Positions 15,031 to 45,882 of a stretch of 64,000 bases of DNA are shown here, in pieces. Both the position numbers and the translations under genes were made by a program. The notes under the pieces are model-generated. The model did not search any database. It was not told the origin of the DNA and was given only the letters and a program-made list of their open reading frames with translations. Positions within the stretch are counted from its first letter, which is position 1. Each line of letters begins with the position of its first letter. Source of the DNA: Tubulanus polymorphus (Eukaryota > Animalia > Nemertea); NCBI RefSeq assembly GCF_964204645.1, contig NC_134028.1, positions 13,895,653-13,959,652 on the forward strand, given 5' to 3'.

Positions 15031-15034
15031 ATTA

Positions 15035-15909
<875 letters not shown>

Positions 15910-15927
15910 ATTATTATTGATAATGAA

Positions 15928-21872: not shown

Positions 21873-22308
21873 TAAGTCATTAGGAATTAATGAAATACCA
21901 GTTTCATTTATGATGAAAAAACGCAAATGAAAAGTCTGGCTTATAAAGCTGTCTGCTCAGACGAAATTTTCAAAAAAATCTTCATTTATGGCAATAAAAT
22001 TGATAATTGTGATTGATCGTTGCAAGACACAACCAGTTAATCACTAATTAACATGCATTTTAATAAATCTGATTCCTCCTTTACAGTGATCTTAGCGTTA
22101 ACCTAGTAGAGGCTACTAGCCTATGTAGGCCTATGTAGGACTATGTATATGCGTAGGCCTAACATCTGGACAGATTGGTCGTCGGCCTATTGAATAACAA
22201 CCCACCTAAATATCGTAAATTTTGTTTAGAAGTTCAATCCAATGAGTCCGTTAATAAACGCAACAATTTTATACTGTGTTTGTTTGAGACAGTAATGCTC
22301 AGTACCGG

Positions 22309-23596
22309 GCAAATGGTAGAAAGTTTCTTTTGTCCAATGTCGTATAGCGCCGCCGCGGTCGAAAATCGAACTAATCTGTCAAGTCGATAATTTTCTAAGT
22401 GAGAAGACGCCGCGTTCAGTTCGCGGTACACTGTACGTACAGTTTTTCGATACACTGCTGTTCAACAAATTTGTTTTGAAGTTGAAGTTCACAGCGCGCT
22501 ATTCAGTTTTCAGAAGTAGATGGCTAAAATAACATCATTCGTAAGATCTCAGATTGAATATTTTCATCGGATTCAGAGCTCAGTTCATTGTATAAAATGT
22601 GTCATTTCATGTATTAGACAGTTACTTCTATTACTCTGACAGGAGTTTTTATGTCATAATTTTTTTACCTCATGTGTAACTCAATTATAGCAGAGTTATC
22701 AATTATTCATTTATAAATAAATTAGTATTATTAATTTAATTATTGGATTGATTATTATTAAGAGATATGACATTATAAACATATATATATATAATGCACA
22801 TTAATGGATGTTATATAAAATGCAAAGATATGGATGTTATAATGATAATGTATTTCTACTCGCATAGAAATGAGACTAAAGTTTTCCTGTTTGGATATTC
22901 TAAAAGCCTATAAGTCCTTTGTCAAGGATATGAATGGTTTGTGATGATATTATGTTAACTAAATTCATTTGTTGGTCGAACGATTTCAATTAATATCGCA
23001 ATATTTAGCATTCGTGATATAATTAATATGATAGAGATATGGCCATTTGTCTATTGTTTATGTTAGCAAAAGATTGCGTTTGATATAGAAGGCTATAATG
23101 TTTTGATGTATGGTTGAGATTTTCAAAATAAATGTTATGCTTACATGAGATAATTGGAACTAGATGTTTTATTTCATTTTTATCAAGTATCGGTGGATGA
23201 GAAGTCTTTCGACGATGTGCAGTTAGCCCATTAGAGTTTGCCTTAAAATACTTTACTCTCAGTCTAAGCTGAATTTAATTCATACCGCCGTTACAGTACC
23301 ATAAAATTCACACAAAATCTTTAGCGTCATTGGAATAGGACGTCCCCTGTTTCACATCCGGCAGGTGTGTTGACGGTGGGTAAGTTTAATAAGGTACACC
23401 AAATCTATTAAAACGATCGCTATTTTAAAATCAAATCATCCCGAAGAAATTGGGGATTCGTACCTATCGGATATATACTGGTACTCGGCGTCTTTCCACT
23501 TAACAAAACATCGTCAATAACATTAGTTTTTATTATTGCTAAGTAGCGGCGCTACCGGTACTGTCGATCGGACATTAGAAACTTTCTACCTTTTGC
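22309..23596. mobile_element. Non-autonomous Mutator-like TIR element (1288 bp, 9-bp TSD CAGTACCGG)
   Basis: TIRs GCAAATGGTAGAAAGTTTCT / AGAAACTTTCTACCTTTTGC. TSD at 22300-22308 and 23597-23605. Empty site near 17396. Confidence 0.8.
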
Positions 23597-23849
23597 CAGT
23601 ACCGGTAGGCCTAAAGCCGCGTAAAACTCGATGAACACCTCAAGCGACACAGCGAACGATCTCCTTTCCTCCACAGCGAACGCTTACTCCGAATGTCAAT
23701 TGTGAGTCCAGGATACGGAAAGGAGTGTGTTATATACTTGTGTTTAGTAAATACCTTGTGTATTTGACAACGATCGGTATGTACTGTAGGAAATAAAGAG
23801 TATTGATGGTATTGATATAGAGGTTGAAGCCCGCGGCCAAATAAAGTAA

Positions 23850-25113
23850 TGATCCACAGCTAGATTTTCGTAGTATTTGAAAATGTTTCGTAGTATTTAG
23901 AAATGTTCTTAGTGTTGTTTCCGTATGCGTGGGGGTTACGTTAAAGCCGTCAGACAAGAACGTACTAGTAGTAAGAATTACGAAAGTTCTTGTTTGATGC
24001 TTTCATCTACCAACGCAAACCATAAATCAGTCTATAAACAACAATTCTTTCTCGGTTCTTCTGCTGTGAGATCTGGCAAACATTCAGAAAATCTTTATAT
24101 AAAAGTTTTAAATAGTTGGAACCATATTCGGTTGGGTCGGAACAATGGAGTGTATTTATAATGAGGCTCGTGAAGGGATCACGCTGATACTTGATGATAT
24201 TCCCGGCTACTTTCCGTAAAAGGAAAAACCGGAAGTTTAGGAAGATGTGGTTGTTTTGCTTATCCTGTATTAAAATAGAATAAGTTAAATTGTAGATAAA
24301 ATAATTAGTATAAGTATTTCAAATAATTTAAGAATTGATAATCAATCACAATGTATTCTGAATCGTAGTTAATTATAATAATTAAAAAAAAGAAACAATG
24401 AATTTGTACTGTAATTAGAAAAGAAAACAAAGTTTTGAAAAGATATTTAATTTTAGTAATCTAGATGTTGTTTAAGAACAAATTGTTAATAATCGCTAAT
24501 GTTTTAGAAAAATTAATTTGTGTTAAATGTTAAAACTAGCTGTCTGAAGTTTCTGTTGTCTGTATGCGCTCGTTGGTAATTCATAGACAATAGCTGCTCT
24601 CTCAACAACGACTAGCAAGCTGTGAGTAAATCACAACGCGTCATGACAGGAGGGTTGGAAAAAAAAGTTAGTTTAGCAAATCAGTTTTGAAAATAATTTT
24701 AGATCAGCGAAACATTAAGGCCAAATTCTATATGACCAAAACAGTAATGACAGTAAGGTTGCTGCTCCTTGCCAAAAGTCGAGTGGGAGAGTCGGTATTT
24801 TAAGAATGCCGATTCTTTCTATAAAAGGGACCCGCATCTTGAGAGAGCAGTCAATCGAGAGAATCTGTACCTTAGTAAGACGAGTGTCGACAGCAGGACA
24901 GGAGAAGCTTCGGAACGATAGGGATTTTATATACAATAGGGATTAGGAAAATCATTCTTTGTTCAAGGTAAATAAAATATATTATCTTCAATATTATCAT
25001 CCGGTATTTCAATTTATTCATTCGGATTTGTGCACGGACACGTTCTCTCGCCAGGGCCTTACTCAAGTATTTTATAGATAACGATTAAAGAGAGGATTGT
25101 GACCGGTGTATCA
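23850..25113 (+). mobile_element. Solo LTR (1264 bp, TG...CA, 4-bp TSD GTAA), related to the LTR at 27940
   Basis: GTAA|TGATCCACAGCT...GTGTATCA|GTAA. TATAAAAGGG near 24820, AATAAA near 24971. Empty site near 20530. Confidence 0.85.
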
Positions 25114-25322
25114 GTAATATATTATTTTATTTTGATACCTCGTCGACATAACAGCTTATCTCCGCTATATCTCTTCGGCGTGTTCCGTTTAGGCCTACGA
25201 CTCCCCGGTACACTTATGATTTATCTTAGTAAATACACGGTTAATAAGATAAAATCCCACTATTTACAGATTAAAAGAATTTAAAAACAAGAATTTATTT
25301 ATTAAATCTAAAATATTTAAAA

Positions 25323-25596: not shown

Positions 25597-25926
25597 TCAG
25601 TGAGTATTTTATACTATTTGCAGTGTTAATTTAGTAGATTATGGTGTAATAACATAAAAGAATATTCCGTAGTACAAGAGTATAACATAAATCAGTGAAA
25701 TAGAGAAGTAATTCCATTAAATTAAGGTGAAATGTTTTGATGCAAGATAAAGGTTTATTTTGTATTGCGCAATCTAGAAATAGCTCAGATATTATAAGTT
25801 TGTATTATCTGTTTACAGATTTGAATCGTCCAAAATCCGTTGAATAAAGAAACATCAATTTGATATCCGGAGTTTGTTATTTGTCGGACGTATTCAAAAG
25901 CCACCACTTGAAAACCCATCGAGCCA
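25597..25926 (+). repeat. BEL/Pao 5' LTR (portion shared with the 3' copy)
   Basis: Near-identical direct repeat of 45553-45882, ending CA. Confidence 0.9.
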
Positions 25927-25959: not shown

Positions 25960-27174
25960 ATGGTAGATCCTGAGAAGACAACAACAACAACACTTAAGAA
26001 TAAGTGTCGGGCAGCTATGTCAGCATTTACGCGTGTCGAAAATTCGCTGAGTGAGGCTATTGTGGCAAATCGTACGCCAGCCGAAATAAGTTTTAAGCTA
26101 GAAGTGTTGAGGGAGAAACTGTCAGCTGCGGAAAAAGCACACGAAAATTACACAGAAGATATGAATGATGACGAATACGAATTGGAAGAAGCGTGGATAA
26201 ATAATGTTCAGAAACAATTCGATGTCGCTCGAGTCCGGGTAACCGATTATTGTTCGAAATTTGCCGTGTCTCCGGTTAAAACAAGAAACGATGCGTTGAA
26301 TATGCCGAAAATTCCGATGCCGAAATTCTCGGGGAAAATCGACGATTCTTTAGCGTTTCGAAGTGACTGGCAAAGGATAGTCGAGCTTCGATACGGAATC
26401 GCCGATGATGTTTTGTATTTACTGCGAAATGCGTTGGAAAACACAAACCCGGCTTATAACGCGCGCAAGTGGATAGATGGCGTATTCGAATATGCAGAAG
26501 CATGGGCGAAACTGGATCAAGTTTACGGAAATCCACGTGAAACTAGCGATTTTGTTATTGGTGAACTGGAAAAGTCAAAATCGCTGGGTGAGAATGAATT
26601 TTCACGGTTTGTAGAGCTGTTCCATAAGATAAAAAAGGCTGAAATGATAATGTCCGAAATGGAACGAAAAGAAGATCTCGACAATTCAACGACGTTAGGG
26701 GTTCTTGAACGGAAACTGTGTAATAGTGATAAATTGAAATGGGCAGAATGTCAGCTCCGAGATCAAATCAGTCCGAATATTGATACGTTCTTGAATTGGA
26801 TGTGGAACCAGATTCAGATACACAAAATTGCTGGAGCCGATATCCGTAGTTCGACAAATATAAAGAAGGGTTCAATATTAGCCGTAGAAGTGGACAGTGG
26901 GTCAAGTACCGCTGCGAGAAATACCATGAACAATACTCAAGTTTTTCCGGGCTCTACACAAACGCCTTCGTGGCGTCCGCGACCGGAGGGTGCTCAGGGA
27001 AATTACTATGTGACGTCATTTTGGTATTGTAAAGGGGAACACAAAATAGATGACTGTCAGCGTTTCAAGTCATTGTCGTCGAATGTCCGTTTGGAGGAAG
27101 TACGTCGTGTTCATGCATGTTATTTTTGTCTGCGTAGACATAAACCCCCATGTCCTGCGCGAAGGGTAAGATAA
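25960..27174 (+). CDS. gag: BEL/Pao Gag (truncated by the LINE insertion)
   Basis: MPKFSG (DUF1759-like) region and knuckles CKGEHKIDDC and CYFCLRRHKPPC. The third knuckle CPEPACRYSHHILLH resumes near 41685. Confidence 0.9.
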   Translation: MVDPEKTTTTTLKNKCRAAMSAFTRVENSLSEAIVANRTPAEISFKLEVLREKLSAAEKAHENYTEDMNDDEYELEEAWINNVQKQFDVARVRVTDYCSKFAVSPVKTRNDALNMPKIPMPKFSGKIDDSLAFRSDWQRIVELRYGIADDVLYLLRNALENTNPAYNARKWIDGVFEYAEAWAKLDQVYGNPRETSDFVIGELEKSKSLGENEFSRFVELFHKIKKAEMIMSEMERKEDLDNSTTLGVLERKLCNSDKLKWAECQLRDQISPNIDTFLNWMWNQIQIHKIAGADIRSSTNIKKGSILAVEVDSGSSTAARNTMNNTQVFPGSTQTPSWRPRPEGAQGNYYVTSFWYCKGEHKIDDCQRFKSLSSNVRLEEVRRVHACYFCLRRHKPPCPARRVR

Positions 27175-27939
27175 TAATAATAATAATAATAATATTTATT
27201 TACAGTCCGTTACATAAAATATCTCAACAGACTTTACAAATTGACAAAAACATAAGACAGTTGACAGATATATAAAATATTACCCAATAAAATAGATATT
27301 TAATTTCAAACGGTTGCTTCAAGTAAAATCATTTGTAGTGCTGATTAAATAGGTGCGTTTTCAATTGCGAGGTAAAACTATTAAGGGAAGATAAATCGCG
27401 CATCGACTGTGGCAAAGCATTCCAAAGGAAAGCTCGAGAGCCATAAAATTCTTGGCGGTATCTCGGTTCAAATAATTTAGTTGCCACGGTCGAGCGCGTG
27501 TGTCTGGAAGGTGTAAGAGTGGTTAAAACAGACGAAAGATAGGCTGGTGCTTGGTCATGCAAAATTTTAAAAGTTAACAGGAGAATTTTGTATTCAATGC
27601 GCGATTGAACAGGGAGCCAATGTAGTTCATACAGTATAGGAGTGATATGCTCGTGCTTCTTAGTGTGACTAGGCGTGCGGCAGAATTTTGAAGCATTTGT
27701 AGGCGAGAAATATAACAATTCGGAAGACCGTAGAGAAGACTATTACAGTAATCTAATTTGGAAGTTATAAAAGCGTGAATCAATCTTTCGGTGCTAGTGC
27801 GATCTAAAAACTTGCGTATTTTACCAATGCGATGCAGGGAGTAAGAAATCGATCTACAGACGTAAGATATATGACAAGACATGGTAAAATTATGATCGAA
27901 ATAAAAGCCAAGATCTCTGACTGACTGACAAGTAGCTAT
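27171..27939 (-). mobile_element. L2/CR1-group LINE, 3' part with (TTA)n tail
   Basis: VRDLGFYFD...SKLDYCNSLLYG...HITPILYELHWLPV; AATAAA followed by (TTA)n on the minus strand. Confidence 0.92.
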
Positions 27940-29022
27940 TGATCCGCAGCTGAATTGTACTTTCAAAAAGATCAAACGATTAATATACGTAGGTTTCTTG
28001 GCATGGTCCTGGGAGAACACACGCATTGTTCCTTGTGTACGATAATACATTATCCGCCTTAATGGTTGTTTGTCTGAAACATTTATACTTGTATCAGACG
28101 AGCATTCTAAATCACTTTGAAGGTAATCACGGCGCTGTAGTCATGAGAAGAATTCGTGGAAATGAGCAATTATGAAATCAACTTATGAAACACTCGCTGA
28201 CCCTTAGTCTGATAATTCGATAATAAGGAGTAATATTAAAGAGTAATATTAAAAAGTAATATTAAAGAGTTTTATTATTTTAATTAATAAGAGTTTGTGT
28301 GTTTAAATTTGAATGTACTAATAATGATAAAGAATATAAATAAGAAAGATGATATTTCGGCTTACATTGTATATTACTATTTAGACAAAATTAAATACCA
28401 TTCATTGTGGGAATTGTAATCATTGGATAAGTTAAAATAAATGAGTTCGAGGGTTGGAAAAATAGTATATATGTAATCTCTTCGGTGCGGTTGAGAAGGA
28501 GAGCAGACCGGCAGGTATCATGACGTCGAGGGTCGGGTTAAAGTTAGCAGCGAATGAAAGGTCTAGGAATCAGGACCCCAGCTCTGCGTCGTGGTGCTGC
28601 GTTGGTTGCTCGTTCCCTTTTACGGCTGGCCGCAAGCAGGGTTCTGGATTTTTCTTGGGTGTGGACGCAGCCGTATAAAAGGGGCCGCACCTCGAGAGAG
28701 AGCGGACTCTTTTGGAAAGCATTTTCAGGGGAAGCATTAGAAGACTATAGAACAGATAACTTTCGGCTATCCGGTTGAATTGCATCTTCTTGTGTGCGGG
28801 ATTTGTAACAAAATTCTAAATTAAAAGGTAGGGAATTTTATAAATTGTTGAGACTTTAGTTCAGTTAAAATTGTAGAATTAAAGTTGAGTATTATCATAT
28901 TTAAATCCGGAGTTCCTTTTATTCCTTGGTTTTCGGGTTTCTGTGTTCGTGGTCGACTTTCTCGCCAGGGACCGGAGTTTGTAATAGAGGAAAAAGACAA
29001 TAGAGAAAGGGACCGCGGAACA
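27940..29022 (+). repeat. Inverted LTR copy (1083 bp) at the element's 3' end
   Basis: Reverse complement of 38713-39795 (one mismatch noticed, near 28856); TG...CA; TATAAAA at 28674-28680. Confidence 0.95.
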
Positions 29023-29061
29023 TATTGGAATATGTTCCGCGGTCCCTTTCTCTATTGTCTT
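28994..29061. repeat. Perfect 33-bp-stem hairpin at the inner edge of the inverted LTR
   Basis: AAGACAATAGAGAAAGGGACCGCGGAACATATT-GG-AATATGTTCCGCGGTCCCTTTCTCTATTGTCTT. Confidence 0.97.
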
Positions 29062-29406
29062 CGTCGCTATGATGACCCTACTCGTTTCATTGTTCGTTTA
29101 ATTAATTGTATAAATTAATGCGTAAACGTATATCCCACATAAATATCACCTAAAGTAACCACTTAAATACGCATAAAATATCATATATGGTTATTATATA
29201 TCGTATAACTATCCGTAAACGAAAATGACATGATCAGCCTGATCAAATAACAATTGCAAAATAATCTTATCACGACTATACTTACAAAGCCGTCTTATAA
29301 ATTCAGGAAAAAGTGCCCATAGGACACTCCTGCCAGAATATTAACATCGCGAGGAGAGTATAACACTAATTCCTCCAAATGCGATGCTACTAAGTGATTC
29401 AAAATC

Positions 29407-32046
29407 TCAATAAAGACGTGGATACAGACGACCCTCATTTGCCAACATCGATCGCCTAGGTATGTCGAAGGACGGAGGACCTGATGGCAAATGATTGGCC
29501 AACGACGATTCTAGGACCAGAATGCTCGGTTGTTGAGTGTCGGTCTGAGCTTCAACGTCAACAGCGACAATTTCAGGTTCAACTGATGACACTACGAGTT
29601 TCGCCGCTTCTCTCAGTTCCACACTCAACGAACGATAATTAGCCACAACGATTGCTTTACTAGATACCGATAACATCTGCCTCATTTCAAACAGACTTAT
29701 CTTCAGAGGCACCGAGCATGATTTCGGTAAATTATAAACCGTCCCCTGTGAACAGGTCATTTGTTTTTCGTGCCAAGTTAAATTCAATCGAGCAACCCCA
29801 CAAGTGACCTGTAAGGCGACTCTAGTAAGAGCTGGTGGCTCTAAATAACATTCAGATTTACATCCAGACAGCGTTAGTAAAGGTAAATCGAGCCTATGTA
29901 TTCCATTCTTAATTCGCAGCATCAATCTAACTGGATACTTACCAGGCGAGCATGCCGCAGGTAAACAATGCCTGCATCTATAAAATAAAGCACGTAACAA
30001 TGGTCGAAAAACAATTATCAAAATTCCCACTACGATTAACAAAAACAGAACAACATCCACCCGAATATTTTCAGCCATGACCACTTCCTTGATAACTGAA
30101 TTATTCCAACCTCCAGAACGTAAATCGTGAATAGAGGGGTGAATTGTGACCATGGCTTGAGCGGGCGGAAGAAATCCTGCTCCTAACACTGGTATTAATC
30201 CTTGAGATTTTAACAAAACAAATATCGACAGTAACATGCTACCTGCGGATAGACCTATTGCAAGCCAAGTCATCCAACCAGTGCTACCACCATTTGAAAT
30301 AACTGGCTCCTGGTGATCAAATAATGCATCGGCTTGGGAACGGTAAAGTTTTGACTCTTGACTGACAGTTTGGGCCAGTTTCTTAAAATCCATACTAAAT
30401 TTAGTATCAACTGCCGCTACCTTTGACCAATTGTTGGTTTTAAAATCCAAAACAGGCAGCGGTGCGTATGGTGTACCCTGGAACATCGTGGCTCCAGTAA
30501 CATTTGAAACTGCATTTTTCCCAAAGAAACTATGAAGGACGGGAAGGTTCACAGCGTGTGCAATAGTTACAGTGTCCTTTTTTATGCATTTATTAATTCG
30601 ACCAGGGACATAAAACGTTGAACCCCGCAATGCACATGCACAACCAATTTTTATTAAGCAAAAACGACATGCTGGAATCGCTTGTGGTGACTTGCCGGGG
30701 CATGCGAGAGTCCAAAAGTCATCACTGCCTGATACGAGGAAATAGCCGTCGCCCACATCAGCCGCTAGTTCGGCGAGGCCCCCGACCTCGTACCTTATGT
30801 GACATAGCGCTAACACCCGCGAGGGCCTGTCGAAGAAAAGACTACTTAGGCACGAATCAACGGTAATTTCGCGCATGGAGACGCGCTGCTGGCAAGTCAT
30901 CACATCAGTACCATGACAAGTGGAAAAGATATCATGACCCATTTCTGTATAATAGTTACCATCCCTGGTCGCGCCAAAATACGGGGGCGTCCCCACGATC
31001 ATTGAAGTGTTATATGATGTGGCGTTTATTGGGACCGGCATAAGGACCACGGAATACAAATCAAAATAGGTCTGACTAGACTGTAACGGAATTTTGACGG
31101 ATATATAAACATATTTATCTGACTTGGTGAAACAAACATCCTTGACCATATAATAGTACCCCACCTCTCTATTAGCTATAGAAAAGCCTGAGTGCATTCT
31201 ATTAAGTTTTTCCGACACGCCGTCAAGAACGGTAGACAACATTTTAGGGTTGACCAGGGCCCGTGGCAAATATCCCTCCAATAGTTTTTCAATCCCCTGT
31301 AGCCACTCGCCCGAAACTGTCGTCAACCTCTCCACTAAAATTATATTTCGTATCGTCATGTCGGCCGCCAATGCCAGCATGCTAGCATCAACGCTTCGAC
31401 TCAATAGTGCTCCTCGAATGGACTTTAACTCTTTAGAATTAGCAACGTACGCCGAAGTCAGACTACTGATCCGAGTGTCCGTCGCATTGATAAACGAGGA
31501 AAGTGTCCCCTGTATATGGGTAATCTGATCTGAATTGAGCTTGACAATCTTCTCGACTTTCTCTACGTGTGACTCTACTTGTTGGACTTCGTCCTCGGTA
31601 GCTGTACCGAACAAGGAAGAAGAAATCGAACCTATCCAAGAAAGCGGTGCTCGTTTGACTCTTTGCACATTGGCGTGTCGTTTCTTTCGGGAACTGGCGT
31701 TTGCCGCATCCGGGATCATTCGCCTCACATCAGCTAATTGTCCCCTGATGTGAACTAACGTGTCCAACTGAAGACGATGTGCCTCTCGATACATCGCCGC
31801 ATAACCGGTGCAATGAGCGCGAATGTTAGGTTGTACAAGCGAACAGCGTAGTCGCAGACCTTTACTTGGCGGGTCGTCGACTACCAGCCACGGTATTGCA
31901 AACGTGTGGAACCACGCACTATCCCCGTTATGCACTCCACCTATTCTGTGAAAAGCCGCACCGTAGTTCGGCCTCAAAACTGTAGCTGGCGTTGACCCAT
32001 AAGCTTGGGCGAACCAAAGAACCAGTAGTACGAGCGCAACCTGCAT
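29407..32046 (-). CDS. env: Envelope glycoprotein of the baculovirus-F/errantivirus type, intact
   Basis: Signal peptide MQVALVLLVLWFAQA; furin site RVKR followed by fusion peptide APLSWIGSISSSLFGTAT; heptad region; Cys-rich ectodomain; TM segments. Splice acceptor TTATCTTTTCAG immediately before the ATG. Confidence 0.92.
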   Translation of the reverse strand: MQVALVLLVLWFAQAYGSTPATVLRPNYGAAFHRIGGVHNGDSAWFHTFAIPWLVVDDPPSKGLRLRCSLVQPNIRAHCTGYAAMYREAHRLQLDTLVHIRGQLADVRRMIPDAANASSRKKRHANVQRVKRAPLSWIGSISSSLFGTATEDEVQQVESHVEKVEKIVKLNSDQITHIQGTLSSFINATDTRISSLTSAYVANSKELKSIRGALLSRSVDASMLALAADMTIRNIILVERLTTVSGEWLQGIEKLLEGYLPRALVNPKMLSTVLDGVSEKLNRMHSGFSIANREVGYYYMVKDVCFTKSDKYVYISVKIPLQSSQTYFDLYSVVLMPVPINATSYNTSMIVGTPPYFGATRDGNYYTEMGHDIFSTCHGTDVMTCQQRVSMREITVDSCLSSLFFDRPSRVLALCHIRYEVGGLAELAADVGDGYFLVSGSDDFWTLACPGKSPQAIPACRFCLIKIGCACALRGSTFYVPGRINKCIKKDTVTIAHAVNLPVLHSFFGKNAVSNVTGATMFQGTPYAPLPVLDFKTNNWSKVAAVDTKFSMDFKKLAQTVSQESKLYRSQADALFDHQEPVISNGGSTGWMTWLAIGLSAGSMLLSIFVLLKSQGLIPVLGAGFLPPAQAMVTIHPSIHDLRSGGWNNSVIKEVVMAENIRVDVVLFLLIVVGILIIVFRPLLRALFYRCRHCLPAACSPGKYPVRLMLRIKNGIHRLDLPLLTLSGCKSECYLEPPALTRVALQVTCGVARLNLTWHEKQMTCSQGTVYNLPKSCSVPLKISLFEMRQMLSVSSKAIVVANYRSLSVELREAAKLVVSSVEPEIVAVDVEAQTDTQQPSILVLESSLANHLPSGPPSFDIPRRSMLANEGRLYPRLY

Positions 32047-32106
32047 TCTGAAAAGATAACAATGAGCCACGTCAATATGGCAAACTTTGGAACAGTCGTC
32101 GTCCTT

Positions 32107-35100
32107 CTATCGGCGCCTATTTTTAGTTTTCCGGCCCCTGGACTTGGACCTAGCCGCTAAGTCATCCCAATAGGCTCTAATAACTTCTGGGTTCAAGTTT
32201 TCAGCTGGCTCAAACGTATTGTCCTTGTTGTCATAACCAACCCATTTGATGAGATATTTCAAAATTCCCTTTTCTTTCTTGTGACGAATAATCTTTTCTA
32301 CGTAGTAGACAGGCTCCACGTCACTCGTAGTTGGTTTGTCTGGCAGAGCCTGTCCGGGATATTCATTTGATCCCCCATGGTCGTCTGTCAAATTATTTGG
32401 CCGGTCGTCTTGGTGATCCTCGTCCTGGTCACCATCGTTTCCATTATCGATATCGTCGTCGATCCTGTCCAACGGTCGAATGTCAGTAGAGAAGAAGTAT
32501 TTCATCCGATTACAATGAATCGGCACTGCTAATTCCTTATTGTTTTCGTCCTCTAAGATGAAAGAAACAGGAGAAAGCTTTCGAACAACCCGATATGGAC
32601 CAGTCCATTGATGTAAGAGTTTCTTACTCAGCCCTTTTACTTTCTTTGGTGTGAAAACTAAGACTTGGTCACCTACGTCAAAAGTTGGCGGGACTGCCGT
32701 TCTATCAAAACGTTCCTTCATCCTTTCTTGAGCCCTTTTGATGTTATCTCTGGCTAATTCCCTGGCTTCTTTCAATTTCGGTAACATGGCCTGAACAAAA
32801 CCTCCTGCGTCAAAGTAGACATCTTTCGGGTTGAGAAGAGCAACATCCATTGGAAGCTTTGGCTCTCGACCGTACATTAAAAAGAACGGAGAATATTGTG
32901 ATGTGTCTGACGCTGGACTAACCCTGTACGCAAAAAGAATTGGATCTAAGTACGTATCCCAATCTGTCTGACGGTCGTTACAATACATGCTTAGGGCCTT
33001 GACTATAACCAAATTCATGTGCTCAACTTGACCTTGAGTCTGTGGTCTATAAGCACTAGAGCGAGCCCGAGGCGTATTACAGAGTCGCGACACCTCATTC
33101 ATCAACTTACTCAAGAAATTGGTTCCGCGATCGCTCTGTAACACAGATGGGGCCCCGTGTCGGCAAATGATTTGCTCATAAAATATTCTAGCAACTGTGG
33201 CTGCCTCTTGGTCTTTCATAGCAAATGCTTCGACCCATTTTGTAAGATAATCAACGAAAACTAGAATATACTTATTCCCTGAAATAGTTGTTGGAAATGG
33301 ACCACATACATCCATTGAGACCCTGTCCCATGGTCCAGTGACAGCGATCGGATTAACTGGGGCTCGTATGGGCTTTCCCGGCTTATTTTTGGTTGCACAG
33401 TCTCTACAAGATTTGATCCACTTTTCTACGTCTTTGTACATACCCGACCAATAATACCTAGCCCTTAATGTCTCATAGGTCCTCTTATGTCCCAAGTGAC
33501 CACCGGTCATTGAATCATGACCTGCTTCTAGAATTTCGGTGCGCATATTTTTGGGGATCACTAGTTGTCGCGGACCATCTGCCTCTATCTTTTTCTTTGT
33601 GTCTACATGATAGAGTAGCCCTTCGTCATCCAAGAAGTAGTAGTCTGACGACAACAGGATTTCTCTGGCCTCCTTGTCCTCTTCCGGTAAGGAGCCGTCG
33701 GCTAGATAATTAATGATATTCAGCAGATTCGGATCAGACCGTTGATTTACAGACATGTCGTTTGGAATCGGATCTCGATTTTCGGCTTGTACCGCGCATG
33801 CCTCAATCGTGTCCTCTTCGATCTGGGGCTCAGGATACGGTCTCCGCGATAGACCGTCAGCATTGCCGTGCGATTTCCCCGGACGATGAGAGATAGAATA
33901 ATCAAACTGTTCAAGATAAAGCGCTATGCGACCCAAACGACCCGACAAATTCTTCATTGATTTTAGATATTGGAGACAGCTATGGTCAGTTATTATTTCA
34001 AAGTGATATCCCCTCAGATAGGGTTCGAATTTCCGAACTCCTGCCGCTACTGCGAGAAGTTCACGGTCCGTGGTGGAGTAATTCTTTTCGGCTTTTGTTA
34101 ACCCACGCCCTGCATATGCGATTGCTCTCTCAGTGCCCTCCTGAACCTGTGCTAATACCATGCCAATGCCATCGTCAGAGGCATCCGTATATAGTAAAAA
34201 TGGAGCTCCCCCATATATGGGATAGGCCAGAATAGGAACTTCGAGCATTGCGTGTTTCAAGGTGTCAAACGCTCGTTGACATGCAGCATCCCATTTATAT
34301 GGAACACTTTTCTTGGTTAGATTATGGAGCGGCGCGGCTATAGTACTATACCCCTTACAGAATCGCCTATAGTAATTGGTAAACCCAAGAAAGCTGCGCA
34401 GTTGTTTTAGGGTGGTTGGAATGGGCCAGTTCTGGACCGCTGCTACTTTTTCGGGGTCGGTAGCAATGCCGTCTTATGATAAACGGTGACCTAAGAAGTT
34501 GATTTCCTTGAGTGCGAAGTAGCACTTCTTAGGGTTCAGACGAAGCCCTGACGCTCGGAAACGATCAAAAATTCGCGCCAAATGTTCTAAGTGGGAGTCG
34601 AACGAGTCTGAATAGCAGATAATATCATCTAGGTATACAAGGCAAAACTTCCCGATCAAATTCCTAAGAAGACCACCCGTAAGTCTTTGAAAAGTCGATG
34701 GAGCTGATTTCAAACCGAAAGGCAATACCTTGAATTCTAGCAGACCAGTTATAAATGCAGTCTTTTCTCTGCTAGCTTCATCTACACCAACCTGCCAATA
34801 ACCGCTCAAGAGGTCAAGTGAGCTAAAATATCTCGGTGATGCCTGTCCAACTTGAGCTAATAAATCGTCAATCCTCGGCAAGGGAAAAGAATCAGTCCGA
34901 GTGACAGCATTGAGTGCTCTATAATCTACACAAAATCGCCACTTGACCTCACCGTCTGGGCTCTTTTTCTGTACTAACACCACTGGGGCAGCCCAAGGGC
35001 TCGTACTATATTGAACAATTCCATTGTCCAACATTTGTTTTACATGAGTGTCGATGACTTCCTGCATACGAGGGGTTGCCCTATATGGCCTCTTCCGAAT

Positions 35101-37143
35101 AGGGGGTGCATCTCCAGTGTCTATAACGTGTTTGACAAAGTCCGTCTTACCCAATTCCTCTGGGGACCTAGCAAAAACATCTTTGTACGAGTGCAGTAAC
35201 TTAAGAAGTTTTGTTCGTTGTGACGGCATCAGGTCAGACTTGACTAGATCGATCTCAGGTAGTCCTATGTCAGCTGATGTCTGCGGCTCGTTAACCTGAG
35301 TAAAATTGACCTCTGGTGGCCTTGGAAGCTGGCCAAAATCCCCCTTAGTTGACAGCGTCCATCCCTCTGTCCATAAATGACCCAAGCACGTACCCTCATA
35401 CAAGGTCACATGTCGGGATGTAGGGTTCATGACCCTAATGGGAATCCCTGTTGAAGTGACATCAACTACTGACCTAGCGCCTAACAAATCCTGAGTGCGA
35501 AGATGGTTAGATGGCTCAAATACAGCAAACGGCGCTGGAGGTTTGTCCGACAAACAGTTCCCGTTCACAATTACTTCACACGAAGGTGGGACAATTGTCA
35601 TTTCGGTCACTTTAACTGTCGAGGGTTTTCCTAGATTGACTGTATTGCTACTAAAATGGATTGTGTCGGCACCTGGCAGCAGGAGAGCTTTCTTGCCGTA
35701 ATCAATAACAGCATGTTGCTGTTCTAGGAAGTCTGCTCCGAGAATAACATCGGAGCTCACGTCATCGACAACATACATAGAATGGGTGAGATCTAGATTA
35801 CCCAGCTGAAAGTTTATGTCTACTAATCCTCTCAAGTTAAACTTACTTCCATCTACCCCACGAGCGGAATGGAATAGTCCTTCTCGCGTTTCACCTGACT
35901 GAATCTGCGGATTTCTATGTAAACAACCACTATTTAAAACGGATATTTCCGCGCCGGTGTCAATAAGAATATTAAGTGGTATACCAGAATGATGACCAAC
36001 TACCCGATTAGCAACAGTAGCCATTATTGACGGAAAATAGTTCTGGGTAACCCCGTCCTGTTCGTCGATTGTGGAGGCAGAAACTCCACTAAAAACCTCT
36101 GTATTACGTGTCGACTCGTCCTTTTCGGCCTCTGAGTCTACGACAACCTCGTCTTGAACCAAGTCACTTCCCTCGTTACACCCATACAACCCATTATCCG
36201 AACTCTCATTCGGTCGAGAAAAATTAAAAGATTCTTCCTGCGAAAATGTGTTAGCTAATTCAGCCTCTTTTTGGCAGAAGGCAGCTTCCGCTGACCTTGG
36301 TGACTTCAATTCGGACTGATTTGTATCTTCGACCACACCCTGATTTAGTATTTTACTCTCTGAGTATTTTACCTTGTGATTAATTTTATTTGATGGCATA
36401 ATTTCGCATTGTACCGCTGATTCAACTGTCGCAGGGCAACTCTGTTGCGCGACTTCATGCCCCTTAATTATCGGAGAACCCTGTTCCCGCATACCGTCGC
36501 CAGTCGTCGAATTCCCCGGATCGACATTCAGACTGCAGCGCGGCCTACTATCATAACACACATTAAGGCATGATTTATTCGTTTGAATCTCATCTATAAC
36601 CACCGGATCACAAAATGTGACTTTTTTATGCCCTTCTCCATAGAATTTATCCCCAAATCGAACTTCATCTTCTTTTAAGTCATTTTCAAATTCAGATTCT
36701 TTGTCTTGACCGTTATAAAAATGATCTGCCCCCCACGAGGGTGTACGACACTCAGAGAACGTTCCAGAATAATCTTTAAGTTCAGTTTCATCAAAATAAT
36801 AAGAATCAGTCCAATCAGTTTTCAAGTCTTGATCATATTCTGATGGATCAAATAATTCGCAATCATCTAGACACGATTGCGACGACAAATACATGTCCTC
36901 ATTATAAAAATCACCATTTCTACAGGAAGAATCATCGTAATACCAGTGTTGATAGTAGTGACTATCATCCCACCAGAAATCAGATTCCCCTAGCGACGCA
37001 TTTGTTGCGGGCCGTATTGTCGATTCGTCACTGGGCGGCCATTCCTCATAGGATGTTCGTTGGCTACACTGGGGCGACCATTTGTGGTGGTTCGACCCCA
37101 CCCTTGCTGGTCTCCTACAGGATGAGGTCCCATGGCGTTTCCC
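32107..37143 (-). pseudogene. pol: Gypsy Pol (PR-RT-RNaseH-IN-chromodomain) with one in-frame stop at 34474-34476
   Basis: LIDTGA, YLDD, YTDAS/ITDH, GH..H/C..C, SMDVCGP/QSDRG/GQVE, WTGPY, and chromodomain YYVEKII..YLIKWVGY..TFEPAENL. ORFs 34474-37155 and 32107-34260 are in the same frame. Confidence 0.93.
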
Positions 37144-38165
37144 TGATTTGGCCAATTCAACCCTGGGCGTTGATTGCTAAATCTTCTATTGTTGTAATAA
37201 CGTCTAGAGTTTGCCGGGCTAGAATTATTAAGATTTCTGTCGTCTGGGCGCCTCTGATATCCCTGATCCACTTGCCAGGTAGGGCAGTTACGGGCGTAAT
37301 GTCCCGGGGCGTGGCAGCGGTAACAAATCACGCTCCCTCCGCTTGATCTCTGTAGAGATCGCCTTTCATCTGGAGATACTCCCCTCTCATGCTGGTCATG
37401 GCGTCTAGGGTTCGAATCCCTATTTTGAGTTGACATGAGTTGTTTAAACATGTCACGCAATTCAGCCATGACTTCTCGTACCTCCTGATTCGGGCTTGCC
37501 TCAAGCTGATTAACCGAGGGGGCAGTTTTCTTCTTTTTTTCTATGTGTTCTGCCATCCTACCGGCCTCCCAGGCATCTCTAAAAGTAGCGGGCCGCTGGG
37601 ACAGCAGATAAAAGGAAATTTCCGGTTTCGAGTTGTTAATTAACAACATTTTCTTCTGGTGATCAGAGAACTTTAAGCTAGAAGCCAACCGATCGATGTC
37701 CTCAGCAAATTGGTCAATCGGTTGCCCCTCCCCCTGTTTCATGGTTGTCAGGGCAGATTCCCTGACTATGGCCCAAGTTGTCGGGCTAAACTGTTTTATG
37801 AAAGCAGCAACGATATCATCCCAAGGGGTAATTTTTAAGTTGCCAGCCGCATCGGTCTCTTGATCGATGTGCAGATCGTTGAAAAGGACCAAAGCAGGTC
37901 CGGACAGAAACCAGAAAATCTGTTTCTTTTTGTCCTCAGTGGTCCAGCCTCTGAGGTCAGCGAGCCTATCATATCCCCTAAACCATTCATCCACATCTTG
38001 ATTGTCCCGGCCTGTGAATTTCGGAAGGAGGCTGTAATTTACAAACGCTGCTGCTGAGCCCATCTGCTCCTGAAGCCCGGTCAGCGCCCGCATGACTGTG
38101 TCATTGCTGACCGAACTATCAGCAGCCGTACCCGGATCCCCTTGGGCCCGACTTCGAGTCGTCAT
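36990..38165 (-). CDS. gag: Gypsy Gag with CCHC knuckle
   Basis: LPKFTG..W, MKQGEGQPI capsid motifs, CYRCHAPGHYARNC. Confidence 0.93.
   Translation of the reverse strand: MTTRSRAQGDPGTAADSSVSNDTVMRALTGLQEQMGSAAAFVNYSLLPKFTGRDNQDVDEWFRGYDRLADLRGWTTEDKKKQIFWFLSGPALVLFNDLHIDQETDAAGNLKITPWDDIVAAFIKQFSPTTWAIVRESALTTMKQGEGQPIDQFAEDIDRLASSLKFSDHQKKMLLINNSKPEISFYLLSQRPATFRDAWEAGRMAEHIEKKKKTAPSVNQLEASPNQEVREVMAELRDMFKQLMSTQNRDSNPRRHDQHERGVSPDERRSLQRSSGGSVICYRCHAPGHYARNCPTWQVDQGYQRRPDDRNLNNSSPANSRRYYNNRRFSNQRPGLNWPNQGNAMGPHPVGDQQGWGRTTTNGRPSVANEHPMRNGRPVTNRQYGPQQMRR
37091..37143 (-). promoter_or_regulatory. Putative -1 ribosomal frameshift signal (G GGA AAC plus downstream stem-loop)
   Basis: Pol is in the -1 frame relative to gag. 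Heptamer at 37137-37143; GACCTCATCC pairs with GGGTGGGGTC starting about 7 nt downstream. Confidence 0.75.
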
Positions 38166-38317
38166 TGTAAAAAAAATTCATTCAAAATTTCTATTGTTAA
38201 AATCATTATTACTATTACCGATATTCTAACTGATATTACTATTATTATTATTCTTATTATTATCTTATTATTATTATTATCCCTAAAATTCGTAGGAATA
38301 ATGCCAATGTATGGAAT

Positions 38318-38584
38318 TTATTGAAAGATCATGGCATAAAACCTAGAGCTTTCCGCCCATGAGGGGTCTTTGTGCTCTTTTCCCAGCACTTCCGCGGTTT
38401 CTACGAGGCAATTTCGAAGGTGCCTTAACTTTGGCCCATTAGCATTTACAATAAGCTCAAATGTTTCCTCGTCACCGGATGCGTTCGCATCCTGCTCCGC
38501 CCAATAGAGACCGTATAGGCCATCCGTGAATACTTCTAACAGAAAATCATAGGTTTCTTGGGCCTCTATGATCTCTTCATCCAT
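38318..38584 (-). CDS. Small acidic leader ORF (88 aa) between PBS and gag, function unknown
   Basis: ATG-initiated, GC-richer island within an AT-rich leader. Confidence 0.55.
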   Translation of the reverse strand: MDEEIIEAQETYDFLLEVFTDGLYGLYWAEQDANASGDEETFELIVNANGPKLRHLRNCLVETAEVLGKEHKDPSWAESSRFYAMIFQ

Positions 38585-38691
38585 AATTCAGAAATTATAT
38601 ATAATACTATCGTATTAGAAATTCAGAAATTTTTTTGTGTTATTTAAATTGGAATTTAAAGTAGCTAATTTATTATATATTATTCCGGAGT

Positions 38692-38709
38692 TCCCGGGTT
38701 TCGGCACCA
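38692..38709 (-). promoter_or_regulatory. Primer binding site complementary to the tRNA-Phe 3' end
   Basis: TGGTGCCGAAACCCGGGA, 3 nt after the LTR's terminal CA. Confidence 0.9.
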
Positions 38710-38712
38710 ATA

Positions 38713-39795
38713 TGTTCCGCGGTCCCTTTCTCTATTGTCTTTTTCCTCTATTACAAACTCCGGTCCCTGGCGAGAAAGTCGACCACGAACACAGAAACCC
38801 GAAAACCAAGGAATAAAAGGAACTCCGGATTTAAATATGATAATACTCAACTTTAATTCTACAATTTTAACTGAACTATAGTCTCAACAATTTATAAAAT
38901 TCCCTACCTTTTAATTTAGAATTTTGTTACAAATCCCGCACACAAGAAGATGCAATTCAACCGGATAGCCGAAAGTTATCTGTTCTATAGTCTTCTAATG
39001 CTTCCCCTGAAAATGCTTTCCAAAAGAGTCCGCTCTCTCTCGAGGTGCGGCCCCTTTTATACGGCTGCGTCCACACCCAAGAAAAATCCAGAACCCTGCT
39101 TGCGGCCAGCCGTAAAAGGGAACGAGCAACCAACGCAGCACCACGACGCAGAGCTGGGGTCCTGATTCCTAGACCTTTCATTCGCTGCTAACTTTAACCC
39201 GACCCTCGACGTCATGATACCTGCCGGTCTGCTCTCCTTCTCAACCGCACCGAAGAGATTACATATATACTATTTTTCCAACCCTCGAACTCATTTATTT
39301 TAACTTATCCAATGATTACAATTCCCACAATGAATGGTATTTAATTTTGTCTAAATAGTAATATACAATGTAAGCCGAAATATCATCTTTCTTATTTATA
39401 TTCTTTATCATTATTAGTACATTCAAATTTAAACACACAAACTCTTATTAATTAAAATAATAAAACTCTTTAATATTACTTTTTAATATTACTCTTTAAT
39501 ATTACTCCTTATTATCGAATTATCAGACTAAGGGTCAGCGAGTGTTTCATAAGTTGATTTCATAATTGCTCATTTCCACGAATTCTTCTCATGACTACAG
39601 CGCCGTGATTACCTTCAAAGTGATTTAGAATGCTCGTCTGATACAAGTATAAATGTTTCAGACAAACAACCATTAAGGCGGATAATGTATTATCGTACAC
39701 AAGGAACAATGCGTGTGTTCTCCCAGGACCATGCCAAGAAACCTACGTATATTAATCGTTTGATCTTTTTGAAAGTACAATTCAGCTGCGGATCA
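38713..39795 (-). repeat. 5' LTR of the Gypsy element (1083 bp)
   Basis: TGATCC...GGAACA on the minus strand, followed by the PBS; TATA at 39055-39061. Confidence 0.95.
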
Positions 39796-41665
39796 CTATA
39801 CTGTCATCTCCTATTCTAATACTTGATAGCTTGTCTCCCTTACGAAATTTTGACGTAAAATGTATAACCTCTGTCTTACTATCATTAAAAACAAGTCTAT
39901 TGCACTTCAACCATTCCTTTATTTCGTCAACACACTTCTCAACTCTTGATTTAGAAGCTGCACAACTCTTGCAGACGAAATAAATCTGGGTATCATCGGC
40001 ATATAACATTTAGTCGAGTTTATGTTTAATAATAATTTCTTCGATTGGTGCAAGATATAAACTGAAAAGTGTAGGGCCTAGTACACTCCCCTGAGGTACA
40101 CCACACATGAGTTTAACATTTTGAGATGACGATCTGTCAATCACGACACGCTGATACCTATTTTCTAAATATGACCTAAACCATTCTAAAGGAACATCTT
40201 TCACTCCATACCGATTCTGTAATCTATTCAATAGAATACCGTGATCTATGGTGTCAAAAGCCGCAGTTAGATCTAATAAGACGAGCACTACTTCATCGTG
40301 ATTATCAAGAGCTAACAAAATATCATTGTGTACTTTTAAAACTGCCGTTTCGGTGCTATTGAACTTCCTATAGGCAGACTGAAATGTTGAGAAGAGGTTA
40401 TTATCGGATAAATACTGACTCAAATCATTCAATACATGCCGCTCTATAGCTTTACTGATAAAAGGTAGATTAGAGACAGGTCGATAGTTACATAAAACAT
40501 TTGAATTAAGACCTGGCTTTTTCAACATTGGCCTGACTGTTGCTATTTTGAAAGAGTCAGGAACTGTGCCCTCAGTGAGGGACAAGTTAAAAATATCGAC
40601 TAACTTTGGTAAAACTTCAGGTAAACATTGTTTTAGAAAAGTAGTGGGAATCGGATCAATTGAACATGACTTATTGGTCATTGAAGTGATAATGTCGTTG
40701 AGAGACTTTTCAGTAACCGTACTAAAACTATTGAAGGAATGACCAAGATCTATAAAAGGAAAACGAGGGAGTGGTACATCAATAAAAGAATTACATAGTT
40801 TGGCAATTTTCACAACAAAAAAAATCGATTAGCCAGTTCTTTGGGATTGCTGTGCTCTGGCAGCGCGGAAATTACAGACTTCTTATCACTTGTCCATTCA
40901 TCGACAAGGGTGAATAACTTTCTCTGATCGGTACAGTCTGCTATCCAACCGCGATGATAGGATCTTGAGGCTTCTTGCAACAAACTATGGTACTCAATCC
41001 GATTGGCATGATAAATCTGTTTATCGACCTCTAATTTGGATGAGATCCACTTCCGTTCGTGGCTACGTAAAACACGCCTAGCAGCCTGGAGATTGGGTCC
41101 ATACCATGGAGCGCGAGGCTTATCGGTGAAAGTTTTAGTCTTTTCTGGCGCTAGATAGTCCAAAACTGACTTCATCTTAGCATCATAGTCATTCGCCAAA
41201 GAATTAACAGTCCCGGTCTCGGTATTCTCAAAAGATATGTTGCGAACTGTTTCCAGTAACACGTTCTTATCCACCGCTCGGAGGTTCCTGGACACACGTT
41301 CGACCGTCAACGGAAACGGTTTAGATAAAAACGAATTAAATACAATAAGACTATGATCTGACGGCAATGACGTATCAACGATAAAATTTGATACACATTT
41401 ATCGGTTTCACGAGTGATCACTAAGTCTAGGGTGTGGCCCTTCTGATGGGTCGGTCCTTGTAAATGTTGTAAGAACCCAAAACTGCGTAATAGATCAAGA
41501 AACTGTTGGGCATCGCGTCGCACGGTATCGTCAACGTGAAAATTGAAATCACCAACTATTATCAAACAACCTGGCGATATCAAAAAAGTCTCAAGGAACG
41601 TTGAAAATTCAACAAGAAATGTCTTTGTGGTCTGAGCAGGTGGACGATAAACAACTACTAAATTA
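39796..41665 (-). mobile_element. L2/CR1-group LINE, 5'-truncated part (APE C-terminus and RT, frameshifted)
   Basis: VYRPP, GDFN, GHTLDLV, SDH; NYRPVS, AFDTIDH, GVPQGSVLGP, YADD. Confidence 0.93.
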
Positions 41666-41679
41666 ATGAGCTGGCTGAA

Positions 41680-44600
41680 CCTGCATGTCCTGAACCTGCA
41701 TGTCGATACTCACATCATATTCTGTTACATGGAGCAAACTTCGAGAAGACTTCGGGAACCGAAAACGACCCTGGTCAGACAGTAAGCGGAACGGTCGGAA
41801 ATTGTCGAAATCAAAAAGGAGAATGTCTACTACCGATTTTGCCGGTAGTGGTAGCAAATGAACGCGTGCGCTGCCTCCTAGATAGTGGATCACAGTTAAC
41901 ACTAATTCGTCAAGATTTGGCTGAAGAGTTGGATTTAGAAGGCGACGAAATCGAAGTGGAGATTGTCACGGTTGGAGATTCAGTGCAAAAATTAAAAACG
42001 AAACTATACGAAATTGAAATTTCAGCAATCTCCGGAGATAAAGTCGTAAAATTGAAGCGATTGGCTTTCCGAAAATCTGTGAAAATTTGTATCGTGTTGA
42101 CAAAGCGGAAATATGCGATTTGTTTATGATTCAGTCGGAAGATATTGATACTGAACCTGGTTCGGTTGACATTTTAATCGGCGTCGACAATATCGAATTT
42201 CATACTGGTTTTATAATTCACAAGGGTGATTATGGTTTGCGTGAAACAATATTCGGTCCTGTAGTGTTTGGTCGTTCTGATAAAGAAGATAAACGTTGTA
42301 GTCCGGGAAAAGTAATTTTGACTAAATAACACGACCCTACAGACATGTCGAGATTCTGGGAAACCGAAGAAATGGGTGTTTGTTTGAACTGGTGCTGTCA
42401 AGAAAGACAACTGGGCGAAAAAATCAAAACTGCGATCGAAGGGAAAGAAGAATTAGAGATTCGTTCGTCCGCCATTCGAATCGGAAATCGGTGGCAAATT
42501 CCGTTACCGTGGAAAAAGGATCCAAATCAGCTACTAGATAATTATTATCAAGCATTTGCGAAATTGCGCGGTTTGGAACAACGATTGCAGAAATCCCCGA
42601 AATTAGCTGAGATTTATAATGAGCAAGTTGAGCAACTAGTGAAGTCCGGTTCGGCAAAGAAAATGACGGCTGAAGAAATCGAAAATTATCGTGGGCCTGT
42701 TCATTATATGAGTCACCATGCTGTAGTTCGACCAGATAAACCAACTCATCCGTGCCGTATGGTCTTCAATCAAGCTGAGAACTATAGAGGTCATGTGATA
42801 AATGATTATTTGAGTAAATGCGGTGATCATCTCAACAATTTACTCGGAGTGTTGATTCGCTGGCGTGAAAGAGAGTATGTATTGGTCGGAGATGTCAAAA
42901 AGATGTACCATCAAGTTCTCGTTAGCCCAGGTTTCGATACTCAAACGCATCGATTCTTATGGCGAAATTATGAGTCGAATCGAGATCCAGATATTTACGT
43001 CAAGATGGTCTTAACATTTGGAGATGTATCGTCACCAGCTCTCGCAAATATTGCAATGGATATGACTGCGGATCAATATAAAACACAGTATCCAGATGCC
43101 GTCGCAACGATTAAGCAATGTCGATATATGGATGACATCGCAGATAGTGTGAATACCGTTTTCGATTTAGAAAAGCGAAGATGTGAGATCGATAAAATTT
43201 TGGAATCGGGACATTTCCAGATCAAGCATTGGTACTCGAATGCATAATTATCGGGCCGGGAGGATGAAGACAACAATGAAGACAACGTTGAGAAAGTGCT
43301 CGGAGTCATTTGGTATCGAGACGAGGATAAGATCTCAATTCATATGTCCATTTTACATCAGATTTGGTGCGCCTGTCATTGTTAAAGGGAAAATCGGACT
43401 GCAGGAATTATGGCGAGAAAATCTTGATTGGGATCAACCGATACCAGAGAAGGTGCAAGACAAATGGTTAAGATGGATTGAGGAAATTCGTAAGCTGGAA
43501 ACACGGAAGTTTGATCGATGTCTAACTCCGGCAAATGCGGCGTCAGATCCAGACCTTGTCATTTTATGTGATGCATCAAATGTCGCTTTCGGGAGTGTTG
43601 CATATTTACGTTGGATATGTGGAGATGGAAAGGTGGAGATAAAGTTTGCGTTGGCGAAGTCGAGGATTGCACCTATTCGTACGATAAGTCTTCCACGAAA
43701 AGAACTACAATCATTGGTATTGGGCTGTAGAATTTATGAGACTATCAAGGTTGAATCGAGACTTGAGATCAAGAACGTTCACATTTTCACTGATTCGATG
43801 ATTGCTTACTCGTGGATTCAGAATGACTCGCGGGTATATAAAACATTTGTTGCGAATAGGATCGGCGAAATTCTGTCTAAAACTGAGCGTAGTTATTACG
43901 GCCATTGTCCGTCGACTGAGAATGTGGCCGATGATATTAGCCGTGGAATCAATGAATCCGATTTAGATGTTCGCTTGGTTGGTGGGCCAGAATTTCTGCG
44001 TCAACCGAAAGATGAATGGCCAGTGTCGTATCCTACCGAAACAACCGAGATAAATGATTCCGAACAAAAACTAGGGTGCGTTATGGTCACAAAACCAAGA
44101 TTCGAGATAAGTGCGTTGCAGAAATTTAGCACGTTGAATCGTCTGATACGCCTCGTTGCAATGGTTCTTCGATTTGTGAAAAATTTGCAGGCGAGAGTTC
44201 GGAATAAGAAAGAACAACTTCAAACGGGAGAAGTTACTGCAGCCGAATTAAAGTGCGCGAAAAGCACAATCGTGAAGTTAGAAATCGGAAATATGAAGTG
44301 GAATTTCGGAAATTATCGCCGTTTGTAGATGCTGCAGGGATTATCCGAGTGGGAGGTCGACTTGGAAACGCTGATGTAGCTTATGATCAGAATCATCCCG
44401 TTCTATTACCAAAGGATCATTTCATATCGAAACTTATCGCGGAACATCAGCATCGATATGGTCATCCTGGAGTTGCAGCGACAACCGCGAAGGTCCGACG
44501 AGGATTCTGGATAATCGGGTTGAATCGGTTAGCTAAATCGGTAGTGCGCAGTTGTTTATTTTGTCGTGAAATGTGTGCAAAAGTGGAGGATCAGTACATG

Positions 44601-45552: not shown

Positions 45553-45882
45553 TCAGTGAGTATTTTATACTATTTGCAGTGTTAATTTAGTAGATTATGG
45601 TGTAATAACATAAGAGAATATTCCGTAGTATAAGAGTATAACATAAATCAGTGAAATAGAGAAGTAATTCCATTAAATTAAGGCGAAATATTATGATGCA
45701 AGATAAAGGTTTATTTTGTATTGCGCAATCTAGAAATAGCTCAGATATTATAAGTTTGTATTATCTGTTTACAGATTTGAATCGTCCAAAATCCGTTGAA
45801 TAAAGAAACATCAATTTGATATCCGGAGTTTGTTATTTGTCGGACGTATTCAAAAGCCACCACTTAAAATCCCATCGAGCCA
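45553..45882 (+). repeat. BEL/Pao 3' LTR (portion shared with the 5' copy)
   Basis: Direct repeat of 25597-25926. Confidence 0.9.

Follow-up and report, generated by a model that had tools for sequence, protein, structure and literature searches.

The window, that is, the whole stretch of 64,000 nucleotides analysed here, carries an env-bearing retroelement of the Ty3/Gypsy type whose two long terminal repeats (LTRs) are inverted, lodged within the reverse transcriptase (RT) frame of a LINE; the features of this insertion are collected in Table 1. Gag lies upstream of pol and an env-like fusogen downstream, and Pfam matches order the pol domains as protease, RT, RNase H and DDE (rve) integrase, followed by a chromodomain (PF00385, E 6.5e-13), with no recombinase family among the Pfam matches of the element's four ORFs. 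The primer-binding site (PBS) for tRNA adjoins the 5' LTR across a 3-nt spacer and matches the 12-nt tRNA end labelled Phe_GAA_His_GUG in PMC13524379 supplement 1. Assignment of env rests on homologues rather than on the query by itself, which yielded no significant Pfam match: eight homologues were found among 7,996 scored candidates, the closest (43% identical) being Baculo_F-positive, and a profile of env with these homologues (nine sequences) matches the solved "fusion protein" 9w4d (E 1.2e-13). Judged from its domains, the family is an env- and chromodomain-bearing (errantivirus-like) Ty3/Gypsy, a known kind. The present copy has an in-frame stop falling in RT, and it has neither direct LTRs nor a polypurine tract (PPT) ahead of a 3' LTR; it is therefore a defective derivative rather than a canonical member.

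Table 1. Features of the insertion and of its host LINE, in window coordinates
Feature	Position	Strand	Evidence
Host LINE 3' half: RT C-terminus, TAA-repeat tail; outer end approximate	27172..27939	-	ORFs, frame
TSD CTAT, left copy	27936..27939	.	Sequence; single CTAT in uninterrupted LINE reads
Inverted LTR, copy of 5' LTR, U3-R-U5 inward; TATA-like sequence at 28674	27940..29022	+	1 mismatch in 1,083 nt
Perfect 33-bp hairpin; arms 28994-29026 and 29029-29061, 2-nt centre	28994..29061	.	Sequence; sibling depth 0 at 29029-29058
TATTGG: 3-nt spacer and first 3 nt of PBS	29023..29028	+	Identical to 38712-38707, minus strand
33-nt direct (sense) copy: last 29 nt of U5 and TATT	29029..29061	-	100% match to 38709-38741
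3-nt microhomology, cut 3' UTR to U5 remnant	29059..29061	-	Sibling reads and contigs match down to 29059, then diverge
Truncated 3' UTR; PPT and direct 3' LTR absent here	29062..29406	-	Siblings have at least 247-255 more nt
env, F-type fusogen-like, 899 codons stop to stop; first in-frame ATG 32046	29407..32106	-	ORFs, homologues
pol: protease, RT, RNase H, DDE integrase, chromodomain; in-frame stop 34474-34476	32107..37176	-	Pfam, ORFs
gag with CCHC knuckle; overlaps start of pol frame	36990..38165	-	ORFs, Pfam
PBS, tRNA-Phe type	38692..38709	-	12-nt match to PMC13524379 supplement 1
True 5' LTR	38713..39795	-	48 sibling reads pass from U5 into PBS
TSD CTAT, right copy	39796..39799	.	Sequence
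Host LINE 5' half: endonuclease, RT; outer end approximate	39800..41709	-	Pfam Exo_endo_phos, RVT_1

Further features of the coding region and its surroundings were recorded in passing. The env frame is in phase with pol after a single TAG (32046-32109) and has its own ATG and a signal-peptide-like stretch 20 codons on; expression by read-through or from a subgenomic RNA would both be open to it. The long stretch of the pol frame between gag and protease (35200-36400) has no Pfam match, and there sibling reads are rich in indels and stand at excess depth. Two direct repeats of 330 nt (25597-25926 and 45553-45882), 97.9% identical, bound what we take to be, from protein features and with no family match, a BEL/Pao-like LTR element, for which no clear target-site duplication (TSD) was seen. 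The interval 25597-45882 would then hold three nested levels, the BEL/Pao-like element enclosing the LINE and the LINE enclosing the Gypsy copy, and repeat divergence (2.1% for the outer pair, 0.09% for the inner) agrees with this order. Elsewhere in the window are an array of ATC/GTC triplets, low in complexity and about 900 nt long (15000-15930), dense dispersed repeats in both orientations, 85-96% identical and likely fragments of one other transposon family (10944-25253), and an older inverted pair of about 1.4 kb with 84-89% identity, likely two copies of one repeat (1917-3337 and 48030-49453).

Read inward, both outer ends of the Gypsy copy give the same sequence, TGATCCGCAGCTG, and the left LTR is the reverse complement of the right one over its full length, with a single mismatch (28856/38879). 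The outer border of the left and of the right LTR alike is the TG end, the one farthest from the PBS, which is taken as U3; the U3/R/U5 order of the inverted LTR was assigned from the position of the PBS and the TATA-like sequence. The CTAT on either flank would be matched by chance in about 1 of 195 cases given local composition, and both the TG..CA termini and the length of the duplication are present as in Ty3/Gypsy elements, for which PMC12440569 gives a TSD range of 4-6 bp. When the two sides are translated separately, the RT frame of the LINE stops at 39800 (..IGDDS) and picks up in phase at 27939 (IATCQSVRDLG..). The uninterrupted LINE, with a single CTAT, is represented by 44 reads and by a contig in each of three same-species runs (X1, X2 and X3; see below) that pass from 27939 into sequence matching 39800-39829; these may derive from paralogous LINE copies rather than from an empty allele. 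Several of these points had been claimed in a preliminary description of this DNA (ends reading the same sequence inward, a flanking CTAT duplication, a LINE frame that rejoins, and the right-hand LTR as the true 5' LTR by virtue of its tRNA-Phe PBS), and each of those is borne out in the sequence. Divergence between the arms is 0.0009 (95% range 0.00002-0.005), one mismatch in all, and the Gypsy insertion is therefore young on this measure. As a separate observation, the LTR termini (27940-27949 and 29013-29022) form an inverted repeat in which 8 of 10 nt agree, and spacers of 3 nt occur on the PBS side and, among siblings, on the PPT side; the likeness of the termini and the two spacers may reflect 3-nt end processing.

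At the inner junction, read on the element strand, env is followed by a cut 3' UTR, by 29 nt of U5 with TATT, and then by the inverted LTR; the junction with the U5 remnant sits 345 nt past the env stop. The 6 nt after the left LTR are those found after the 5' LTR, which marks the left LTR as likely a copy of the plus-strand strong-stop type. The short direct U5 remnant and the end of the inverted LTR together form a perfect hairpin (z -12.2; none of 200 shuffles as good); at its centre, one side reaches a single base into the primer site, the other three. Only the inner U5 end recurs internally among the terminal sequences, and there is no internal complementary region (ICR) repeating both outer termini. 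The earlier statement that neither a PPT nor a direct 3' LTR follows env stands as regards the PPT, no purine tract of at least 11 nt being found from the env stop to the junction except inside the U5 duplicate, and must be amended as regards the LTR, of which a direct 29-nt U5 remnant (with 4 nt more) does follow env. Antisense AATAAA signals lie at 28923 and 28276.

Sibling copies were sought in five (X1-X5) of ten listed runs bearing the same species label, X5 consisting of raw Illumina reads (about 12% of the run) and X1-X4 of contigs; the survey spans at most three samples and two studies per analysis, and X6-X10 are nearly without matching words. The second arm of the hairpin (29029-29058) has a depth of 0 in X5, X1, X2 and X4, four of four runs in 30-nt bins, between adjoining X5 bins at 207 and 53. 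Depth along the 3' UTR in X5 is flat (49-54) right up to the junction, so that hairpin-bearing reads were not selectively lost, and mixed letters along the sibling UTR show that several copies were sampled. A departure at 29059 into other 3' UTR sequence, over at least 247-255 nt, is seen in 44 reads (agreement 0.96) and in a single contig from each of X1, X2 and X4, and the last three matching bases fit both sides, which constitutes the 3-nt microhomology. Hairpin forms number 0 against 44 normal reads, with a 95% upper bound of about 7% of the reads crossing that point.

Other sibling junctions resemble those of a canonical family. From the U5 end, 125 reads exit into mixed flanks (agreement 0.46) against 48 that enter the PBS, and ahead of U3 a G-rich purine tract ending 3 nt before TG is seen in 66 reads (agreement 0.63) and an X1 contig. 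LTR depth is about five times that of the 3' UTR, an excess that points to solo LTRs. No read or contig in X1-X5 bridges the 3' UTR to U3, and the direct orientation of sibling 3' LTRs is deduced from these junctions. With a PPT-like tract, a longer 3' UTR and U5-flank junctions, the siblings look canonical. On the element strand, the TSD of this copy opens with three letters that also open the flanks beyond the U5 ends of siblings in X5, X1 and X2, in weak agreement with a target preference of the family. Internally deleted derivatives also occur among the sibling reads (30712-35242), with joints skipping 3,001 and 4,163 nt in 5 and 15 reads, respectively.

The insertion itself was seen in no listed run, and the private variants of this copy are absent from X1-X5 at the sites named here, all X5 reads differing from it at 29956 (74/74), 31667 (59/59) and 32760 (62/62). 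Variants common to both arms are rare among siblings (reads differing at 28035, 192/198; at 28560, 242/261; at 28714, 244/254), and both arms thus likely stem from one template. At 28856 the left arm differs by a substitution from the right arm, whose letter is shared by 237 of 244 sibling reads.

Wider searches returned no second example. Among 80 related Gypsy loci from metagenomes (the best 80 of 584, 28-55% identity), 13 contain long-range repeats (at least 60 nt, at least 2.5 kb apart), all direct and none inverted, a weak control in that 6 of the 13 look like contig-end overlaps and the relatives are distant; the other 67, including the four closest (L001-L004), have no such repeat. Seven pattern matches in viral contigs included no relative, and the exact U5-end pattern had no match in metagenome contigs. 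In the literature searched, most subscription journals being outside its scope, no description was found of an LTR element that has U3 at both ends and a clean TSD, or of a two-U3 provirus in vivo; PMC2939329 and PMC12789967 likewise gave nothing further on the use of two U3 ends.

The anatomy, the duplicated 4 bp, the sequence of the junction and the lack of this junction among sibling copies are observed; from them we consider it probable that the copy is a single accident, an aberrant cDNA carrying U3 at both ends that the element's own integrase inserted, a judgement made jointly for two routes. Borders that lie exactly at TG, with 4 bp duplicated on either side, argue, from established retroviral integration, for one concerted integrase reaction with two U3 ends. 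The preliminary description had left the choice between a lineage with a non-canonical course of reverse transcription and a rare aberrant cDNA accepted through two U3 att sites; the latter fits the sequence, and the former is contradicted, in the runs surveyed, by a hairpin depth of 0 in all four and by a 3' UTR that continues into other sequence. It had also reasoned that direct LTRs with a PPT in sibling copies, together with solo LTRs, would mark this copy as an accident, and X1-X5 agree, with a PPT-like tract, U5 ends in many flanks, the roughly fivefold LTR depth and a direct orientation deduced as above.

Of the two routes, the one we tentatively favour, plausible without being probable in its own right, yields a single dead env-bearing Ty3/Gypsy copy from one cDNA by two RT template jumps followed by concerted integration through two U3 ends. 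In a first step, synthesis would skip from the 3' UTR to a point 33 nt before the U5 end at the 3-nt microhomology, so that the PPT and almost the whole 3' LTR would be lost; a plus-strand skip and an early minus-strand jump would have the same outcome in sequence. In a second, RT at the end of its template, one base into the primer site, would make an end-to-end switch to a plus-strand strong-stop DNA, at the 3' end where this had stopped three bases into the primer site, possibly through a 2-base clamp at the GG centre, and would copy back to the U3 end of that molecule. RNase H can leave one primer base, and strong-stop DNA ends are ragged. In a third step, integrase would insert both U3 ends in one normal concerted reaction. 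RTs of LTR retroelements clamp templates end-to-end with about two base pairs after non-templated addition, according to 10.1101/2021.05.13.443781, and such clamping could account for the 2-nt centre of the hairpin. The product is predicted to be a dead end, since no known route would let it rebuild U3 and its RT is interrupted by a stop. Against this route, the structure rests on one assembly, and snap-back repair by the host fits the junction about equally well.

That repair belongs to the second route, possible and on balance unlikely, in which two cDNAs of one particle would each supply a U3 end to one integrase complex, and a polymerase-theta-type snap-back joining by the host would close the inner ends, making the 33-nt inverted insert and the 3-nt microhomology. 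The same outer-junction evidence, exact TG and 4-bp duplication, speaks for it, and a short inverted templated insert ending in microhomology is the outcome of snap-back SD-MMEJ described in PMC5728401. Snap-back as described there requires a pre-existing inverted primer repeat, and here there is none, the PBS continuing TGGT where the junction has TGGA; moreover, a chromosome break must be survived, with at least 1.3 kb lost from one end. Both the RT-jump route and the two-cDNA route need one step without pre-existing homology, and sequence alone cannot separate them.

Two further readings are, to an equal degree, improbable. In one, host repair rearranged a normal or one-ended insertion, the truncated end priming on its own 5' LTR, turning back and joining the left flank. 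Aberrant HIV and ASLV proviruses with one normal end and the other extended by copying either viral strand are precedents (PMC5041404), and the LTR termini, alike at 8 of their first 10 nt, could guide such a switch; these products usually bear long duplications or deletions of host DNA, whereas the left junction here is exact at TG with a 4-bp stagger, a border that would have to be exact by chance, and three template switches would be needed. The other is an artefact of assembly or library, either an amplification chimera or a fold-back read. Inverted repeats of 1 kb are prone to such artefacts, and the junction is in none of four runs; these runs, however, are also without the private variants of the copy, and absence of the junction from them is thus expected. 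An artefact would further have to produce the exact TG border, the TSD and an inner junction composed of primer-site ends, and the left arm differs from the right at 28856, a substitution that a single consensus error could also yield.

It is very doubtful that two copies inserted tail-to-tail at one site, one being reduced to a solo LTR and the other losing its 3' end. Inverted tandems of LTR elements exist, for example two Rover insertions with the target motif in their junction (PMC5932611), yet a double insertion, as described there, leaves a target-site copy in the junction, where here TATTGG from the PBS side rather than CTAT follows U5; with private variants common to both arms as well, this reading is largely refuted. 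Scarcely credible is a subfamily confined to the source population that replicates with inverted LTRs, the 33-nt repeat replacing R, a panhandle rebuilding U3 and integrase routinely using two U3 ends: the 33-nt repeat, being the first 33 nt of the primed minus strand, could in principle accept the first jump, but no hairpin reads were found against 44 continuing normally and there is no second example, no heritable primer lies at the outer U3 border, the antisense AATAAA signals and the RT stop are adverse, and all 13 related loci with long-range repeats (of 80; distant, a weak control) have them direct. Within the runs surveyed, from at most three samples, a replicating family is refuted by the same-species reads and contigs, in which the hairpin junction has depth 0.

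The copy is thus likely a rare copying accident, and a new way of replicating is likely not indicated; were the replicating subfamily real, it would represent a new replication scheme for LTR retroelements. If long reads confirm the structure, the locus would capture, in the germ line, an event suggesting that two U3 ends are usable by a Gypsy integrase in vivo, and that integration of fold-back by-products of cDNA synthesis can leave a clean TSD. Such copies would likely escape LTR finders that demand direct repeats. The predicted promoter of the left LTR points into env in antisense, and accidents of this kind could seed small-RNA silencing of their family.

Known systems share parts of this anatomy. 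Like DIRS-1, the copy is a retroelement with inverted terminal repeats and a short internal repeat of terminal sequence; according to PMC7192593, DIRS-1 has a tyrosine recombinase, non-identical inverted repeats and an ICR repeating both outer ends, whereas this copy has a DDE integrase, identical arms, a tRNA PBS and an internal repeat of the inner (U5) end only. Membership of DIRS was rejected on the DDE integrase without tyrosine recombinase and on the lack of such an ICR. The inversion circles of autointegration (PMC7197481) are likewise aberrant cDNA with an inverted segment between LTRs, but autointegration consumes att ends to give non-functional circles, whereas here both U3 ends are in host DNA and the inner end is unprocessed; this origin was set aside since the inner junction does not have the form of a processed CA end. 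In the Rover inverted tandems of PMC5932611, outer LTR ends face each other in one site as they do here, and the present junction differs in holding primer-site bases and a 33-bp hairpin instead of a target-site copy.

Env-bearing Ty3/Gypsy elements with a chromodomain ("ancient errantiviruses") are known from Cnidaria, Mollusca and Annelida (PMC13524379; the word "inverted" is absent from its main text). With these the element shares the gag-pol-env order, PR-RT-RH-IN with a C-terminal chromodomain, an F-type-like env and a tRNA PBS, the Phe type being among those listed; unlike them, this copy lacks a PPT, has its LTRs inverted and carries a stop in RT. Aberrant proviruses of HIV-1 and ASLV offer the parallel of a truncated viral end joined to more viral sequence in either orientation (PMC5041404); there, one end is made by the host with irregular duplication or deletion, whereas here integrase seems to have made both outer ends, each of them U3, and the TSD is exact.
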